Shown piece after piece: positions 23,450 to 30,968 of a stretch of DNA of 64,000 bases (the stretch's first letter is position 1; every line of letters begins with the position of its first letter). The position numbers and the translations under genes were made by a program. Source of the stretch: Candidatus Nomurabacteria bacterium (GTDB taxonomy: Bacteria; Patescibacteriota; Minisyncoccia; Phycocordibacterales; UBA9973); contig PMDZ01000006.1 of the NCBI GenBank assembly GCA_003155695.1, forward strand, positions 20,007 through 84,006. Reading direction: 5' to 3'. Under the pieces are notes generated by a model. The model did no database searches and was not told the DNA's origin. It worked only from the letters and a program-made list of their open reading frames with translations.

Positions 23450-26400
23450 TTGTATATTATGAGAAAATTAAAGTTCCTAAAACTCCATTGGGCAAAACTT
23501 CTTTCGGTATTCTTTTTAATATTACTTCTCGGAGCTTATGCCCATATTTTCGCTATTGACCGAAAATATAATCCGGGAGAAATATTGAACCCGGATTGTT
23601 TTCCGGGAGAAACAAATTGCACGGTTGATATTACAACTGGAAGTTCACAGTGGACGACAAATGGGTCTAGTATTTATTACAACACAGGGAATGTTGGAGT
23701 AGGGGTGATTGCACCGACAGCACAATTACAATTTAAAGCTGGAACTACTACTGCTGGAACTGCTCCGCTTAAATTCACTGTCGGAACAAATTTAACTAAT
23801 GCCGAAGCCGGAGCGATGGAATGGAATGGAACAAATCTTTTTATAACCCAAACATCAGGTCCAACTAGAAAAACAATTGCTTATACCACGGATATTTCAG
23901 ATAGTTCACCTATCACTATTGTTGATAGTACCAATCTTGTTTCGACCGGACTTCAGGCAGCTGGACCCGTTCCCTATGGAACACAAGATGCGATTATCAT
24001 TGGTCGCTGGGCAGGATTCAATATGATTTCCGGTTATAATTCAATTTTTTTAGGCCTTGAAGCTGGTGCTCAAGCCAATGCCGAGTCCTCTAATTTTATA
24101 GGACATGGCGCTGGTAGTGGTACTACATCTCAATATTCAAACTTTTTGGGTCATTTTGCTGGTGAAAATTCTACCTCAGCTAACTATTCAAATTTTATTG
24201 GTAGTGATGCTGGAGCGTCTACTTCCGCTACTTTTTCAAATTTCATCGGTTTTGTTGCTGGCCGCGATGCAACTTCCGCTTCCTATTCAAACTTTTTTGG
24301 GTCTAGCGCTGGTTCTTCTGCTGCTAATGCCAGCAATTCAAATTTTTTTGGTGCAGGCGCTGGAGCGAACGCCACTAATGCATCTTATTCAAATTTAATC
24401 GGTTTCAGAGCCGGACTATCTCCCATTAGTATTAATAACAGTATCGGTGCCAATAATATAATTATCGGGACAAACATTTCATTACCAACCGCAACAGCTA
24501 ATTCGATGAACTTGGGTGGTGTTTTGTTTGCCACCGGAACTTATGCAACTACAACAGGTAATCCATCAACCACAGCCGTTGCGACGGGTAAAGTTGGAGT
24601 CGGAGTTGTTTCGCCATCGGCAAGATTGCAACTTGCTGCCGGAACCGCTTCCGCCGGTACTGCTCCACTTAAATTAACTGCCGGGACAAACTTGGGAACA
24701 ACCGAAGCTGGAGCGATTGAATACGACGGTTCCCATTTATATTTTTCGGCCACAAATAATGGAGACAGATATCAACTGGACCAACAAGCAGATGGAATAG
24801 TAAGTTCCCCATGGTTAGCAAATGGTTCTGATATTTATTATGATGGTGGCAATGTCGGCATTGGAAATGATTCACCGACATCAAAACTTGACATCAAACT
24901 TGATTTGACAGTATCTTATAATCAAAGTTTTTCCGGTAGTGGATTAAATGATGCCATATATTCAGGAACATATTCTGGATCAAATCCTCCAAACGCTGTA
25001 ATTGTTCAAATAGATGGCGAAGGCACACCTGATACTTTCACATATTACGATAACCATTCAGATTGTTCTTATCCTAATGGATTTTCAATTCCAATTACCG
25101 GCTCGGCGCAATTAGTTTGCGATGGTATTTCTATTACATTTACAAATATAACTGGGCATCACAGTGGAGATACTTGGACATATGAAATTAACAGTCCGGA
25201 TTCTAATCCGATTATTAAAATAAGTGATAACACGGGCAATAATTACTTTACTGTTAATGCGGTTGCCGATAAATCAAATTTCCTAGGTACTAATGCTGGT
25301 AATGGTGCTGTCTCTGCTCATGATTCAAACTTCATCGGTACATCTGCTGGTAATGGTGCTGTCTCTGCTCATGATTCAAACTTCATCGGTACATCTGCTG
25401 GTTATGGTGCAACCTCAGCTTCCGGCTCAAACTTCTTAGGCCTAAATGCCGGTATTTATGCTACTGGTGCCCATAACTCAAACTTCTTAGGTCCTAGTGC
25501 TGGTAATGGTGCCACCTCTGCCATCTTTTCGAACTTTATAGGTACTGTTGCTGGTCTTAGTGCCACCTCCTCTTCCTATTCAAATTTTATAGGTAATGGT
25601 GCTGGATATCAAGCCACTTCTGCTTCTTACTCAAACTTCTTAGGGATAAATGCAGGTAATGGTGCTACCTCTGCTATCAACTCAAACTTCTTAGGTCCTT
25701 GGGCTGGTTCTGGTGCTATCAATGTTTCTTATTCAAATTTATTTGGCTATGAGACGGGGATGTCTTTTACTGGCAACAACATTGGCTCCAACAACATAAT
25801 CCTCGGAACAAGTATTTCTCTACCTAATGCGGCAACCAATGCTATTAATTTAGGAGGAGTCATATTTGCAACAGGGACACATTCTGACACAAATGGCATA
25901 TCTATCATTGCTGAAGCTACTGGCAAAGTTGGTATCGGAGTCGTCTCACCGTCAGCTCGCTTACAACTTGCTGCCGGAACCGCTTCCGCCGGTACTGCCC
26001 CACTTAAATTAACTGCCGGTACAAATCTTTCGACAACCGAAGCCGGAGCGATTGAATACGACGGTTCCCATTTATATTTTTCGGCCACAAATTCCGGAAG
26101 CCGTTACCAACTCGACCAGCAAGGTGGAACTCCTTCTCCTATTACTATTGTTAACACCTCAAATCTTTTTTCAACAGGAATTAGTGCTGGAACTGGGGTA
26201 ACTTCTACAACTGATTCAAACTTTTTTGGTACTGATGCAGGTGATTCTGCTACTGGTGCTTTTGGTTCAAACTTTTTTGGTCCATCTGCTGGAATTTCAG
26301 CCCCGGATGCTTTTTACTCAAACTTTTTTGGTTTACAAGCTGGGGCAGGGGCTAATGATGCCAGCAATTCAAATTTTTTAGGTCATAATGCTGGTGCTAG

Positions 26401-27781
26401 TGCCATCAATGCCGCATTATCAAACTTCTTAGGACAATCCGCAGGTTTAGGAGCTGTAGGAGCTTCTGAGTCAAACTTCATAGGTGATTCTGCCGGATAT
26501 CAAGCCACCTCTGCTCATGATTCAAACTTCTTAGGAAATGCTGCTGGTCAAGGTGCTTCCCTTGCCTCTTACTCAAATTTATTTGGTTACCAATCGGGAA
26601 GGTCTTTCCCTGTAGATACTCCCACTAACAATATCGGTTCCAACAACATAATCATCGGAACAAATATTTCTTTACCTAATGCGACTGCAAATACCATGAA
26701 CTTAGGTGGAGTTCTTTTTGCCACAGGAACATATGCAACGACGACTGGCGACCCATCTATCACCGCAGTCTCAGGTGGCAAAGTCGGTATCGGCGTCGTT
26801 TCGCCATCATATACTCTCCAAGTCGGAAACTCATCTATCTCCGGAGTAGTCGCCCGATTTGAAAATAGTGTCGGAACTTGTGACATCAATCCTACTACCT
26901 CATCGGTTGGTTGTTCTTCCGACATAAGATTAAAGAAAAATATAACTACCCTCGATAATACAGAATTTGCTCTCTCAACTGTCCCTGATATGACAGGTAA
27001 ATCAACATTGGAAAAAGTTCTGAATCTCACTCCGGTCACATACAACTGGAATAGTGAAAGTGATACCGACCAGAAACACATTGGGTTCATCGCCCAAGAA
27101 ATGGAACAAATATTCCCTGATTTGGTCAGCACCGACCCGGTAACAGGTCTTAAGTCTCTTAGTTACGCAAACATGACGCCATACCTAGCCAAAGCCATAC
27201 AGGAGATGGATTTAAAAATTACAGATATTAATAATCAGGAATTAGAAAATAGTTGGAGGGATAGCATACTTGCTTGGTTTAAAAATACCTCAAATGGAAT
27301 TACTGAATTTGTCTCAAGTATTCTTCGAGCCAAAGATAAACTTTGTATCGGAGAGGGAAGTGACGAAGTTTGTATAACAAAGGAAGACTTATTGCAAATG
27401 AAAAATAATGCCGGACTAAACGCCGGAACAGCTGCCGTGCTTCCGACTGTTGATAACTCCGGCTCATCCGGGACAGATAATTCAACTGCTGGGACATCGG
27501 ATACTTCGGGAACAGGAGCATCCAATACCGGAACAACGACCGACACCACCGGTACGACAGGGGGGAACGACGGTAACAATACCGATACAACCGGAGGAAA
27601 CACAAATAACACAACCACAGATACATCCACCACAAATACTCCCGATACTGGAACGACGAATATAAATGCTGGTAATGATACGACCGGTAATGCAAGTGGT
27701 GATACGACAAATACGGATACAACCAACACTAATAACAATAATAGTGGAACGGATAATCAAAATAATGACCTCGGTAATTAA
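23450..27781 (+). CDS. Giant (1443 aa) secreted repetitive surface protein with a C-terminal phage-tail-fibre-type intramolecular chaperone (Peptidase_S74-like) domain and a T/N/G/D-rich tail
   Basis: A signal peptide, then three modules each starting with GKVG(V/I)GVVSPSARLQLAAGTASAGTAPLKLTAGTNL..TEAGAIEYDGSHLYFSATN. Each module is followed by 10-15 tandem 17-aa repeats (SNFIG..AG.GA.SA..). Near the C-terminus is CSSDIRLKKNITTLDN...LNLTPVTYNWN...HIGFIAQEMEQIFPDLV...LSYANMTPYLAKAIQEMDLKI, the S74 chaperone signature. Confidence 0.75.
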   Translation: MYIMRKLKFLKLHWAKLLSVFFLILLLGAYAHIFAIDRKYNPGEILNPDCFPGETNCTVDITTGSSQWTTNGSSIYYNTGNVGVGVIAPTAQLQFKAGTTTAGTAPLKFTVGTNLTNAEAGAMEWNGTNLFITQTSGPTRKTIAYTTDISDSSPITIVDSTNLVSTGLQAAGPVPYGTQDAIIIGRWAGFNMISGYNSIFLGLEAGAQANAESSNFIGHGAGSGTTSQYSNFLGHFAGENSTSANYSNFIGSDAGASTSATFSNFIGFVAGRDATSASYSNFFGSSAGSSAANASNSNFFGAGAGANATNASYSNLIGFRAGLSPISINNSIGANNIIIGTNISLPTATANSMNLGGVLFATGTYATTTGNPSTTAVATGKVGVGVVSPSARLQLAAGTASAGTAPLKLTAGTNLGTTEAGAIEYDGSHLYFSATNNGDRYQLDQQADGIVSSPWLANGSDIYYDGGNVGIGNDSPTSKLDIKLDLTVSYNQSFSGSGLNDAIYSGTYSGSNPPNAVIVQIDGEGTPDTFTYYDNHSDCSYPNGFSIPITGSAQLVCDGISITFTNITGHHSGDTWTYEINSPDSNPIIKISDNTGNNYFTVNAVADKSNFLGTNAGNGAVSAHDSNFIGTSAGNGAVSAHDSNFIGTSAGYGATSASGSNFLGLNAGIYATGAHNSNFLGPSAGNGATSAIFSNFIGTVAGLSATSSSYSNFIGNGAGYQATSASYSNFLGINAGNGATSAINSNFLGPWAGSGAINVSYSNLFGYETGMSFTGNNIGSNNIILGTSISLPNAATNAINLGGVIFATGTHSDTNGISIIAEATGKVGIGVVSPSARLQLAAGTASAGTAPLKLTAGTNLSTTEAGAIEYDGSHLYFSATNSGSRYQLDQQGGTPSPITIVNTSNLFSTGISAGTGVTSTTDSNFFGTDAGDSATGAFGSNFFGPSAGISAPDAFYSNFFGLQAGAGANDASNSNFLGHNAGASAINAALSNFLGQSAGLGAVGASESNFIGDSAGYQATSAHDSNFLGNAAGQGASLASYSNLFGYQSGRSFPVDTPTNNIGSNNIIIGTNISLPNATANTMNLGGVLFATGTYATTTGDPSITAVSGGKVGIGVVSPSYTLQVGNSSISGVVARFENSVGTCDINPTTSSVGCSSDIRLKKNITTLDNTEFALSTVPDMTGKSTLEKVLNLTPVTYNWNSESDTDQKHIGFIAQEMEQIFPDLVSTDPVTGLKSLSYANMTPYLAKAIQEMDLKITDINNQELENSWRDSILAWFKNTSNGITEFVSSILRAKDKLCIGEGSDEVCITKEDLLQMKNNAGLNAGTAAVLPTVDNSGSSGTDNSTAGTSDTSGTGASNTGTTTDTTGTTGGNDGNNTDTTGGNTNNTTTDTSTTNTPDTGTTNINAGNDTTGNASGDTTNTDTTNTNNNNSGTDNQNNDLGN
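25295..25396 (+). repeat. Perfect 51-nt tandem duplication (2 units) inside the giant surface-protein gene
   Basis: gctggtaatggtgctgtctctgctcatgattcaaacttcatcggtacatct occurs twice back to back, encoding AGNGAVSAHDSNFIGTS x2. Diverged copies flank it. Confidence 0.9.
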
Positions 27782-30700
27782 AATATTTTTCAAATATATA
27801 CTCCTCATTATTTTAATTGGCGGAGCTTTTGGGGTTTTTGCCTCGACTACCAACGGAACGATAGATGCGGGCAATCACACGGCGCTTCTTTGCATGAATG
27901 ATATTTGTTCCGTCACCACCAGAATAAATTTTTTGACGACCAACGGCAGAGCTGTACATGTCACAAATAGTGCGTTAACCGGTGAAATATGGTCGGAACA
28001 GGTAGGTTGGATAAATTTAAATCCGACAAATAGCGGGGTAGCCAATACAACGAGAGGTATTCTTTCCGGCGATGCTTGGGGAGAAAATGCTGGTTGGATA
28101 AATTTTGATCCCTATAATGGTGGAGTAGTCATAAATAATAGGGGTGAATTTGTCGGCTTTGCTTGGAGTCAAAATTACGGATGGATTAAATTTGATTGTA
28201 CTGTTGCGAATGCTTGTGTCAAAACTGATTGGCGCCCGAGTAATGATGGGGGTGGTGGAGGAGGGCCACCAGTGGTGGATATATGCCCAAATATTGCCGG
28301 GAATCAAACATTAATACCGGATGGTCTTGTTATCAATGCTCTTGGGCAATGTGTTTCCCCAGAACAATGTAATGTCCTAGATGGTGCACTTAAGCAACCA
28401 CTTGATGTCATGATTATAATTGACAAATCAGGCAGTATGGCTGGCACCAAACTGTCTCAAGCCAAAACCGCCGCTACAGCCTTCATCAATAATCTGGTTC
28501 TCGGTTCTGACCGGGTCGGATACGTCTCATATTCTACGACGGCAACACTCGAAAATGGGCTGACAACATCTTTTGATACAATTAAAGCAAAGATAGCAAG
28601 TACTGTATCAAATGGAAATACGAATATCGGAGGAGCGGCAAGAATTGCTTATCAAGAAATGTTGATCAATGGTCGGGCGGGAGTTAAGCATGTCATCATT
28701 ATTCTGACCGATGGACAAGCAAATGTCTCGGATGTTAGAACTCTGACCCCAAATCAATACGCGATCAATCAATCGGACCTGGCCAAACTCCGAGGCATGA
28801 TTGTTTATTCTATCGGACTGGGGACAGATGTAGATTCCGATCTTCTTTCTTCTATGGCAACCTTGCCAAGTTATTTTTATAATTCTCCGACTGGTAGCGA
28901 CCTTTCAAATATTTATCTGCAAATTGCCGCTATTGAATGTACCGCTGCCCCTTCAAAGGTTTTCGATACGGTTATTTATGATGCAAATAGAAATGGATTA
29001 TATGATACCAATGAAAGGGGATTAGCTGGATCTATTATCTCCTTAACAAGTAGTGATGGCAGTCAACAAACAAGAACGATGACAACGCTTGCCGACGGGA
29101 GTTTCCTTTTTGATGCTGTAACACCAGGGAACTATTCAGTCTGCAATACATCACCTTCGGGGATGTATCAAACCAAACCAGTTTCAAATGGATGTTTTGA
29201 TATAAGTGTTGTTCAAGGTATTAATGTCACAGATCTCAAATTTTTAGTTACTGGTAACCAACCATTTTGTTCGCTTAATCCAAATGACCCATCATGTGAT
29301 GTTTGCCCAAACATTTCAGGTATCCAAAGTACAATTCCGAATGGATTTACCATTAACTCAAGTGGTAATTGCGTTCCAACCCCAACATTCTGCGAACAAA
29401 ATCCCACCGACCCATCATGTAATCCAACATTCTGCGAAAACAATCCCAATGACCCATCATGTGATGTTTGCCCAAATATTTCAGGTACCCAAAGTACAAT
29501 TCCGGATGGATATACCTTGAACTCAAGTGGTAATTGTGTTCCGGCTCTAACATTTTGTGAACAAAATCCCACCGACCCATCTTGTATAACTCCAACGTTC
29601 TGTTCACTTCACCCGAGTGACTCAACATGTGTAGAGCCAAGTTTCTGTACACTTCATCCCACAGACCCATCTTGTATAACTCCAACATTCTGCACACTTC
29701 ACCCTAACGATCCGTCATGCACAACCCCATCATTTTGTGCTCTACATCCCACCGACCCATCTTGTATAACTCCGGCATATTGTGCTCTTCACCCGACTGA
29801 CCCATCATGTTCAACGCCGGAGATATTTTGTGCACTTCATCCGACCGACCCATCGTGCATTAATCCGACATTTTGTTCTCTCCATCCGACGAATATATTA
29901 TGTGTAATTAAAGATACAACATCCGGTATTTTAGAAACAATAAATGGAAATCTTAATAATACTATTACCGATGTAGCCAAAAATGTTGCCGAGGCAACTG
30001 AAATTATCTTTACAAATCCAGTCGGGAAAGTTGTCACTAAAATAGTTGAAACAACCGGAGCTGTCACTGGTGCAATCGGCATTGCCGGCTTAGTTTTCTC
30101 CGGACCAATTGCTCTGGCTGATGCTTTTCTAATTCCAATTCGGTTGTGGAGTCTTCTTCTTGCTCTGTTTGGAATCAAAAAAAGGAAAACTCCATGGGGT
30201 ACAGTTTATGACAGTGTCACAAAGCAGCCCCTTGACCCGGCATATGTCGTTTTACAGAATTTAGATGGCAAAGAAGTTGCGACTTCGATTACCGACCTTG
30301 ATGGTAGATATGGTTTTCTTGTTCCACCTGGAGCGTATAGAATTATCGCCAGAAAAACAAATTATGAATTCCCTTCAAAGAAATTACTTGATAGACAGAA
30401 AGATGAATTATATGATGATTTGTATTTCAATGAAATCATAGAGGTTAAAGAAGGGGGAATCATAACCCGTAATATCCCAATGGATCCGATTAAGTTTGAT
30501 TGGAATGAATTTGCCAAGCGCGATCGCAAATTAATGAAGTTCTACTCGAGACGCAGTCTTTGGGTTGCTCTTATTTCGGATATTCTGTTTTTCCTTGGTC
30601 TAATCATCTCTACAATTGCGACAATTATTACGCCAGTTACATACAATATCATCGTTCTCGTTGTTTATCTAGTTTTACTCATATTAAGAGGGACGATATT

Positions 30701-30968
30701 AAAACCTAGAATTTATGGTCTTGTAAATCAAAAAGAAAACAAAGATCCATTGTCTTTTGCTATCATGAGAATTTTCTTTGCCGGAAGTGACCATGAAATA
30801 GCACACAAAGTCACAGACCAAACAGGTAGGTATTATTGTCTTGTTCCAAACGGCAGGTACTATACAAAGATTGAGGTAAAAAACCCTGATGAAAGTTATA
30901 GTTTAGTTCATATATCAGATCCAATTGAAGTTAAAAAGGGGTATATAAACAAGAAATTTGAGGTGTAA
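27765..30968 (+). CDS. Large multi-domain surface protein (putative adhesin): tryptophan-rich GWI(N/K)F triple repeat, vWA domain, SdrD-B/Cna-B-like domain, a roughly 10-unit CxLHPTDPSC repeat array, a carboxypeptidase-regulatory-like domain and TM segments
   Basis: The start is taken at MTSVIKIFFKYILLIILIGGAFGVFA (27765) rather than the upstream ORF start 27666. The vWA MIDAS motif is DVMIIIDKSGSM...ILTDGQAN. The SdrD-B-like motif is DANRNGLYDTNERGLAGSI. The Cys repeat is TPTFCTLHPNDPSCTTPSFCALHPTDPSC... Confidence 0.7.
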   Translation: MTSVIKIFFKYILLIILIGGAFGVFASTTNGTIDAGNHTALLCMNDICSVTTRINFLTTNGRAVHVTNSALTGEIWSEQVGWINLNPTNSGVANTTRGILSGDAWGENAGWINFDPYNGGVVINNRGEFVGFAWSQNYGWIKFDCTVANACVKTDWRPSNDGGGGGGPPVVDICPNIAGNQTLIPDGLVINALGQCVSPEQCNVLDGALKQPLDVMIIIDKSGSMAGTKLSQAKTAATAFINNLVLGSDRVGYVSYSTTATLENGLTTSFDTIKAKIASTVSNGNTNIGGAARIAYQEMLINGRAGVKHVIIILTDGQANVSDVRTLTPNQYAINQSDLAKLRGMIVYSIGLGTDVDSDLLSSMATLPSYFYNSPTGSDLSNIYLQIAAIECTAAPSKVFDTVIYDANRNGLYDTNERGLAGSIISLTSSDGSQQTRTMTTLADGSFLFDAVTPGNYSVCNTSPSGMYQTKPVSNGCFDISVVQGINVTDLKFLVTGNQPFCSLNPNDPSCDVCPNISGIQSTIPNGFTINSSGNCVPTPTFCEQNPTDPSCNPTFCENNPNDPSCDVCPNISGTQSTIPDGYTLNSSGNCVPALTFCEQNPTDPSCITPTFCSLHPSDSTCVEPSFCTLHPTDPSCITPTFCTLHPNDPSCTTPSFCALHPTDPSCITPAYCALHPTDPSCSTPEIFCALHPTDPSCINPTFCSLHPTNILCVIKDTTSGILETINGNLNNTITDVAKNVAEATEIIFTNPVGKVVTKIVETTGAVTGAIGIAGLVFSGPIALADAFLIPIRLWSLLLALFGIKKRKTPWGTVYDSVTKQPLDPAYVVLQNLDGKEVATSITDLDGRYGFLVPPGAYRIIARKTNYEFPSKKLLDRQKDELYDDLYFNEIIEVKEGGIITRNIPMDPIKFDWNEFAKRDRKLMKFYSRRSLWVALISDILFFLGLIISTIATIITPVTYNIIVLVVYLVLLILRGTILKPRIYGLVNQKENKDPLSFAIMRIFFAGSDHEIAHKVTDQTGRYYCLVPNGRYYTKIEVKNPDESYSLVHISDPIEVKKGYINKKFEV
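29570..29890 (+). repeat. DNA-level array of about 39-nt repeats encoding the C-x-LHPTDPSC-ITPTF peptide units
   Basis: Near-identical units read from the sequence, e.g. ttctgcacacttcaccctaacgatccgtcatgcacaaccccatca and ttttgtgctctacatcccaccgacccatcttgtataactccggca. Confidence 0.7.

Follow-up and report, generated by a model that had tools for sequence, protein, structure and literature searches.

Does the perfect tandem repeat inside a fibre-like gene of this Candidatus Nomurabacteria genome record a recent change in the number of repeat units, and does that number still vary among cells? The window, by which we mean the whole stretch of 64,000 nucleotides that was analysed, contains a gene with several arrays of short in-frame units, one of which is present twice in succession. 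The initial annotation had taken this pair as a sign of ongoing variation in repeat number, by which fibre length or antigenicity would differ from cell to cell. Tandem repeats in the genes of bacterial surface proteins do vary, as described for the staphylococcal SD-repeat proteins (PMC3324548) and reviewed for coding repeats in general (PMC3899988).

The fibre gene and its product

The gene lies on the + strand at 23459..27781, starting from an ATG at 23459, and the gene call on the source contig has the same start and an identical product. It encodes a tail-fibre-like, putatively secreted surface protein of 1440 aa, a length for which the adjective 'giant' used at first is generous. The N-terminus is a predicted Sec signal peptide (MRKLKFLKLHWAKLLSVFFLILLLGAYA; 23459..23542, + strand), as read by eye from the translation through its basic N-end, hydrophobic core and AxA site. 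Three arrays of units follow on the same strand. Alignment of the units on their SNF motif gives seven units, two of them of 16 aa, for module 1 (24089..24439) and eight for module 3 (26216..26623). Module 2 (25274..25783) consists of ten 17-aa units of the pattern SNFxGxxAGxxAxxAxx, among them the duplicated one. A conserved connector, with 76-82% DNA identity between modules, comes after each array, and the protein ends in a Thr/Asn/Gly-rich tail.

On the C-terminal side of the fibre, Pfam recognises a Peptidase_S74 intramolecular-chaperone domain (PF13884; 26918..27127, + strand; E 3.4e-16), which covers residues 1157-1226 of the 1443-aa translation and scores 59.7 bits, against a cut-off (gathering score) of 22. 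The C-terminal piece alone scores 63.4 bits. The domain starts with SSDIRLKKNI, which we take to correspond to the Ser...Lys pattern of the Peptidase_S74 family. In its characterised relatives, the S74 domain drives the folding of a trimer and is then cut off. By analogy with this family, the protein of the window is probably trimeric and would release its S74 domain. Its homologues bear the name 'tail fiber domain-containing protein [Candidatus Paceibacterota]'.

The 17-aa repeat was assigned to no family by Pfam, NCBIfam, PHROGs or PDB sequence searches. A homologue search returned 601 proteins at E <= 0.001, 120 of which were listed, and the 17-residue unit was found both in myophage tail-fibre genes, beside sheath and lysozyme genes, and in chromosomal genes of CPR bacteria. 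In the AlphaFold2 model, which is a monomer prediction based on a 17-sequence alignment, each 17-residue unit forms one coil of a beta-solenoid. This beta-helix-like model resembled tailspikes best. Foldseek returned no significant match in the PDB.

We also considered a trimeric autotransporter. The heads of such adhesins (YadA, UspA1, BadA) are made of short solenoid repeats with a unit of 14 residues, whereas the unit in the window has 17, and S74 replaces the anchor. A Pfam search with the whole protein and with its C-terminal 291 aa returned Peptidase_S74 only and no YadA-type membrane anchor, and this assignment was rejected.

Just upstream of the second array lies a unique domain (24830-25300). 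A metagenome search with this domain found nothing closer than 58%; the best match in genomes was 34% over a comparable length, and viral sequences gave only short pieces of 54-64%. The nearest relative, at 58%, is a 2369-aa protein (L003, 1726-8835) in which the domain is present twice and which has an extra repeat block that looks YadA-like by eye. Its arrays are much longer, about 17-19 units each as opposed to 7, 10 and 8 in the window, which indicates that array length changes very readily within the family.

A perfect 51-nt tandem pair in the middle array

The first copy of the 51-nt unit is at 25295..25345 and the second at 25346..25396, both on the + strand, and the two are identical at 51 of 51 positions, as seen on reading the sequence and with a script. 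The unit begins in frame 0 of the ORF, and the 17-aa unit AGNGAVSAHDSNFIGTS occurs twice. Shifted by 51 nt, the sequence continues to match itself exactly for 1 base to the left of the pair and 6 to the right, a match of 58 nt in all (25294-25351 = 25345-25402). The whole strictly period-51 tract, on which slippage or unequal exchange could act, therefore measures 109 nt (25294..25402, + strand). Tandem Repeats Finder reported the same pair (25294-25410, period 51, 2.3 copies, 98% matches) and, around it, a wider diverged array (25274-25716, 8.7 copies, 69% matches). With its ten head-to-tail, in-frame units of 51 nt, a multiple of three and well over the 10 nt required of such units, the middle array has the make-up of a coding minisatellite, or VNTR.

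Could the identity of the two copies simply follow from the likeness of all units to one another? When the 26 units of the fibre gene are lined up by their SNF motif, two units share on average 56% of their nucleotides (sd 10%). The top identities, 88% and 80%, belong to pairs that overlap the duplication, whereas the other 51-nt units share 39-78%, with 75-78% for the best pairs unrelated to it. As background similarity averages 56% and reaches 78% at most, an identity of 51/51 is not a by-product of general unit likeness. An exact in-frame doubling among diverged neighbours, as initially described, was thus verified. The fibre gene also has no longer exact direct repeat than this pair; the next two, of 48 and 35 nt, are between module connectors. 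With 0 differences in 51 nt, the 95% upper bound for the divergence between the copies is 5.7%. Set against the 7% that separate the window from a related strain (L002, discussed below), this sequence comparison makes the duplication appear recent on that scale, finer dating being impossible.

Whole units are gained and lost in relatives

Perfectly identical adjacent 17-aa pairs were present in 5 of the 120 listed homologues, and adjacent pairs matching at 15 or more of the 17 positions in 27 of them. When the 20 multi-member clusters formed at 90% identity were compared internally, three contained proteins that are 99.9-100% identical and differ only by array-internal indels of 17 or 34 aa. 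The total indel in these variable clusters amounts to up to 51 aa, all inside arrays. At the DNA level, the gaps measure 51, 102 or 204 nt, the units at their edges are identical or nearly so, and point differences number 0-3 over 4-6 kb.

Two of the clusters differ in context. One pair (P0013/P0128) comes from a myophage context with a sheath gene nearby, and its two genes match without a mismatch over 4.0 kb apart from one gap of 102 nt, which lies between near-identical units. Another cluster (P0020/P0134/P0136), whose genes adjoin Endonuclease_7, has 0-3 mismatches in 6.1 kb and three alleles, with units arranged as A-B-A, as A-A or as a single A-like unit.

The third cluster (P0032/P0139/P0140) is chromosomal and belongs to another CPR lineage, in which the gene stands directly upstream of rpsL-rpsG-fusA, like that of the window. 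Over about 4.7 kb the alleles have two point differences, and they carry 3, 2 and 1 copies of a 102-nt repeat made of two units. Two of the assemblies show a 51-nt unit as a perfect tandem pair, the third as a single copy (2/2/1). The three assemblies were made from three samples with different programs (JGI, SPAdes, MEGAHIT). On the corresponding contigs (L020-L022; gene at L022 478-5283), the S74 fibre gene is downstream of adk, a GIY-YIG gene and map, and upstream of rpsL-rpsG-fusA.

Copy number thus differs between near-identical strains in arrays homologous to that of the window, in three clusters, with 1-3 unit indels for 0-3 point substitutions per 4-6 kb in the genes of these relatives. 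In the variable lineages, the gene has changed by whole units no less often than by all point substitutions together. Some of the indels in relatives could be artefacts of short-read metagenome assembly. The general claim that identical in-frame units are substrates for expansion and contraction was borne out in these three independent clusters of homologues.

Copy number at the locus itself

The source contig (ENA ERZ27256921 k141_4337598, 93.8 kb) had been assembled by MEGAHIT with k=141. The protein is present on five contigs of 50-200 kb, all identical and with two copies of the unit each, in a look-up that returns exact sequences only; the other four contigs were not told apart by the short-flank look-up and may not be independent samples. 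Neither a one-copy nor a three-copy allele of the unit was found among these five exact-match contigs, and the array is covered in no close strain. The 90% cluster of the protein comprises three fragments, all of them outside module 2, and the exact 51-mer was absent from JGI metagenome contigs, GTDB genomes and IMG/VR. The proposal of ongoing repeat-number variation therefore stands for the homologues, which do gain and lose units, but five identical contigs, retrieved by exact look-up, display none at this locus. A comparison of strains and metagenomes, also suggested at the outset, gave a similarly divided answer, as the arrays of relatives vary in unit number while the array of the window was encountered in no close strain.

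In three other samples the gene occurs only as fragments (L002, P0123, P0124). The L002 sequence (1-1833) begins within the third array and stops 3 nt before the repeated segment of the neighbouring VWA gene. This fragmentation fits assemblies broken by repeats or by strain mixtures.

L002, from JGI sample 3300046505, represents the one related strain for which DNA is available, with 93% nucleotide identity to the window over 1.8 kb. It departs from the window in two dense groups of differences: at 26507-26537, 8 of 31 nt are changed, and at 26719-26755, 10 of 31 nt. Within the former group, the L002 unit is identical to its upstream neighbour at 28 of 30 positions, compared with 21 of 30 in the window; within the latter, the two strains' stretches are each like a different module of the fibre gene of the window. 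The former group also coincides with 22 nt of module 3 (26509-26530) that match the duplicated unit exactly. To judge from these sequence patterns, short conversion tracts may also act in the fibre gene.

Origin of the identical pair

We consider it probable that the pair arose through a recent duplication of one unit, by slippage or unequal recombination, in a minisatellite-like coding array. One 17-codon unit of the middle array would have been duplicated in frame not long ago, through replication slippage or unequal recombination between adjacent similar units, and module 2 would thereby have gone from nine to ten units. The identical pair would now offer further gain or loss a better substrate than any other part of the gene, and the locus would show one moment in a minisatellite-like turnover common to the whole family, in phage tail fibres as well as in chromosomal genes of CPR bacteria. 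The possible traces of conversion in the gene mean, though, that an identical pair could in principle be converted rather than gained: two existing, diverged neighbours would have been made identical by a short intragenic conversion tract, with copy number unchanged. The clustered, neighbour- or module-like differences of L002 and the 22-nt tie between the duplicated unit and module 3 speak for such a homogenisation, and, with no outgroup for the array, a duplication is indistinguishable from conversion by a neighbouring unit. Yet the identity spans exactly one period plus 7 nt, which is the footprint expected of one-unit slippage, and module 2 has 10 units compared with 7 and 8 in modules 1 and 3. 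Both features favour a gain over a conversion. Furthermore, the differences among relatives are length changes and not mosaics alone, and homogenisation appears unlikely to us. That the assembler wrote a single unit twice is far less plausible still, and we regard it as highly improbable. Tandem repeats are known to give rise to errors in assembly (PMC6868369), a caveat that applies to all the metagenome alleles compared here, and the gene is fragmentary in three other samples, with L002 starting inside the third array. Against this, the k-mer size of 141 exceeds the 109-nt periodic stretch, which means that single k-mers span the copy number, the same protein is carried by five contigs of 50-200 kb, and a perfect 51-nt pair is also present in relatives assembled by other programs. 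De Bruijn assemblers, moreover, tend to collapse tandem copies rather than to add them, which is the opposite of the error needed.

A separate question is whether unit number is under selection, that is, tuned or switched at a high rate as an adaptive contingency affecting fibre reach, evasion of phages or of host defences, or antigens. Unit indels in relatives are at least as frequent as substitutions, and the gene encodes a surface protein within a strain-variable island. However, a high indel rate is predicted by the mechanics of repeats alone, the changes are in frame and switch no expression, each unit amounts to one solenoid coil of about 0.5 nm, and neither dedicated variation machinery nor a reverse transcriptase, such as a diversity-generating retroelement would have, was seen among the Pfam-assigned genes of about 13.5-37.8 kb of the window. 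A selected variation system is for these reasons quite unlikely, more so than homogenisation, and we retain the one-unit duplication as an event of ordinary repeat turnover.

Effect of one more unit

As one unit corresponds to one coil in the predicted fold, an extra unit would lengthen the solenoid by about 0.5 nm. Since the fibre comprises 25 coils as well as connectors, such a change is likely to be close to neutral. Reading frame and expression are unaffected by the gain of a unit, and altered antigenicity or function is at most a possibility. The proposed consequence for fibre length or antigenicity is probably overstated. The duplication is real but ordinary; it is a routine mode of change in proteins of the cell surface that are built of repeats, and has long been known as such, also from phage fibres of repetitive build.

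Comparison with known systems

The surface-protein VNTRs, of which the alpha C protein of group B Streptococcus is a further example, are close counterparts. The window shares with them head-to-tail repeats, in frame and some tens of bases long, within the gene for a secreted surface protein, identical units as the end points of gain and loss and, in its relatives, near-identical strains that differ by whole units. It differs from them in that a single allele of the locus is known, in an uncultured CPR bacterium, and in that its unit is, in the model, a coil of a beta-solenoid and not a disordered or stalk spacer.

Among phage proteins, tail fibres and tailspikes of the endosialidase type, with their C-terminal intramolecular chaperone, are similar in other respects: the protein of the window has an S74 domain above the Pfam cut-off, its model is most tailspike-like, and its 17-aa repeat is also encoded by genuine myophage tail-fibre genes that have sheath and lysozyme genes as neighbours. 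Unlike these, the gene of the window is chromosomal, between an M50 peptidase gene and rpsL-rpsG-fusA, and has a predicted signal peptide.

Simple-sequence contingency loci have units of about 1-9 nt, and a change in copy number shifts the reading frame or the spacing of a promoter. The proposed slippage between direct repeats is common to both. In the window, by contrast, the unit measures 51 nt, has two identical copies and always remains in frame, so that length is altered and there is no on/off switch. A role as a phase-variation switch was rejected, the 51-nt unit being in frame inside a coding sequence.

Host and accessory island

The fibre gene is surrounded by housekeeping genes, upstream those for PGK, RecJ, RNase H, ComEC, SOD, L28 and the M50 peptidase, and downstream those for S12, S7 and EF-G (rpsL-rpsG-fusA). 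Proteins with 88-92% identity to the EF-G bear the names Candidatus Paceibacterota, Nomurabacteria or Patescibacteria. This affinity and these neighbours indicate that the host is a CPR bacterium of the Paceibacteria type and not a phage. A prophage was also rejected, since the fibre gene and the VWA gene that follows it are flanked directly by housekeeping genes and no phage genes were seen nearby.

The VWA gene (27765..30968, + strand), identified by gene call and Pfam, encodes a protein with VWA, SdrD_B and CarboxypepD_reg domains and Cys-rich 15-aa repeats. It overlaps the fibre gene by 17 nt (27765-27781) in a different frame, an arrangement in the sequence which suggests that the two genes may be expressed together. 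In a relative that shares the gene order and has a 97% identical EF-G, gene calls place rpsL 90 nt after the M50 peptidase gene, and both island genes are absent. Their absence from so close a relative defines a strain-variable island of 7.5 kb (23459-30968). A scan for promoters and terminators and a reading of the island borders gave nothing decisive on the route of insertion.

A chromosomal, S74-containing, tail-fibre-like protein that is encoded in an island missing from a close relative, and that is built of a unit common to phage fibres, may reasonably be proposed as a fibre for attachment between cells, in a group of bacteria few of whose host-contact proteins are known. We also entertain, as a rather doubtful speculation, a broader scenario in which an episymbiotic cell of the Paceibacteria type would have obtained the fibre and VWA genes by horizontal transfer, as an island for attachment that is specific to the strain and is built of a phage-fibre solenoid unit uncatalogued in Pfam and NCBIfam. 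Units would then turn over at least at the pace of point mutation, their number would evolve fast and possibly under selection, as a determinant of reach or of specificity for a partner, and the population would still be polymorphic for the pair at 25295-25396.

Beyond the duplication, two features are worth a note, namely the occurrence of an uncatalogued 17-residue solenoid unit in both phage fibres and CPR chromosomes, and the presence of an accessory island beside rpsL. Whole-unit differences among relatives imply that such genes will be mis-clustered and mis-assembled in metagenomes, and unit number could serve as a strain marker.

The island has a slightly raised G+C content of 0.42, compared with 0.38-0.39. 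The relative with the 97% identical EF-G has two sigma-70 genes after fusA that are absent from the window. The VWA gene has repeats of its own, a 165-nt pair with 89-90% identity (29277-29586) and a 45-nt array (29545-29887) that encodes the Cys-rich 15-aa units TPTFCxLHPxDPSC.
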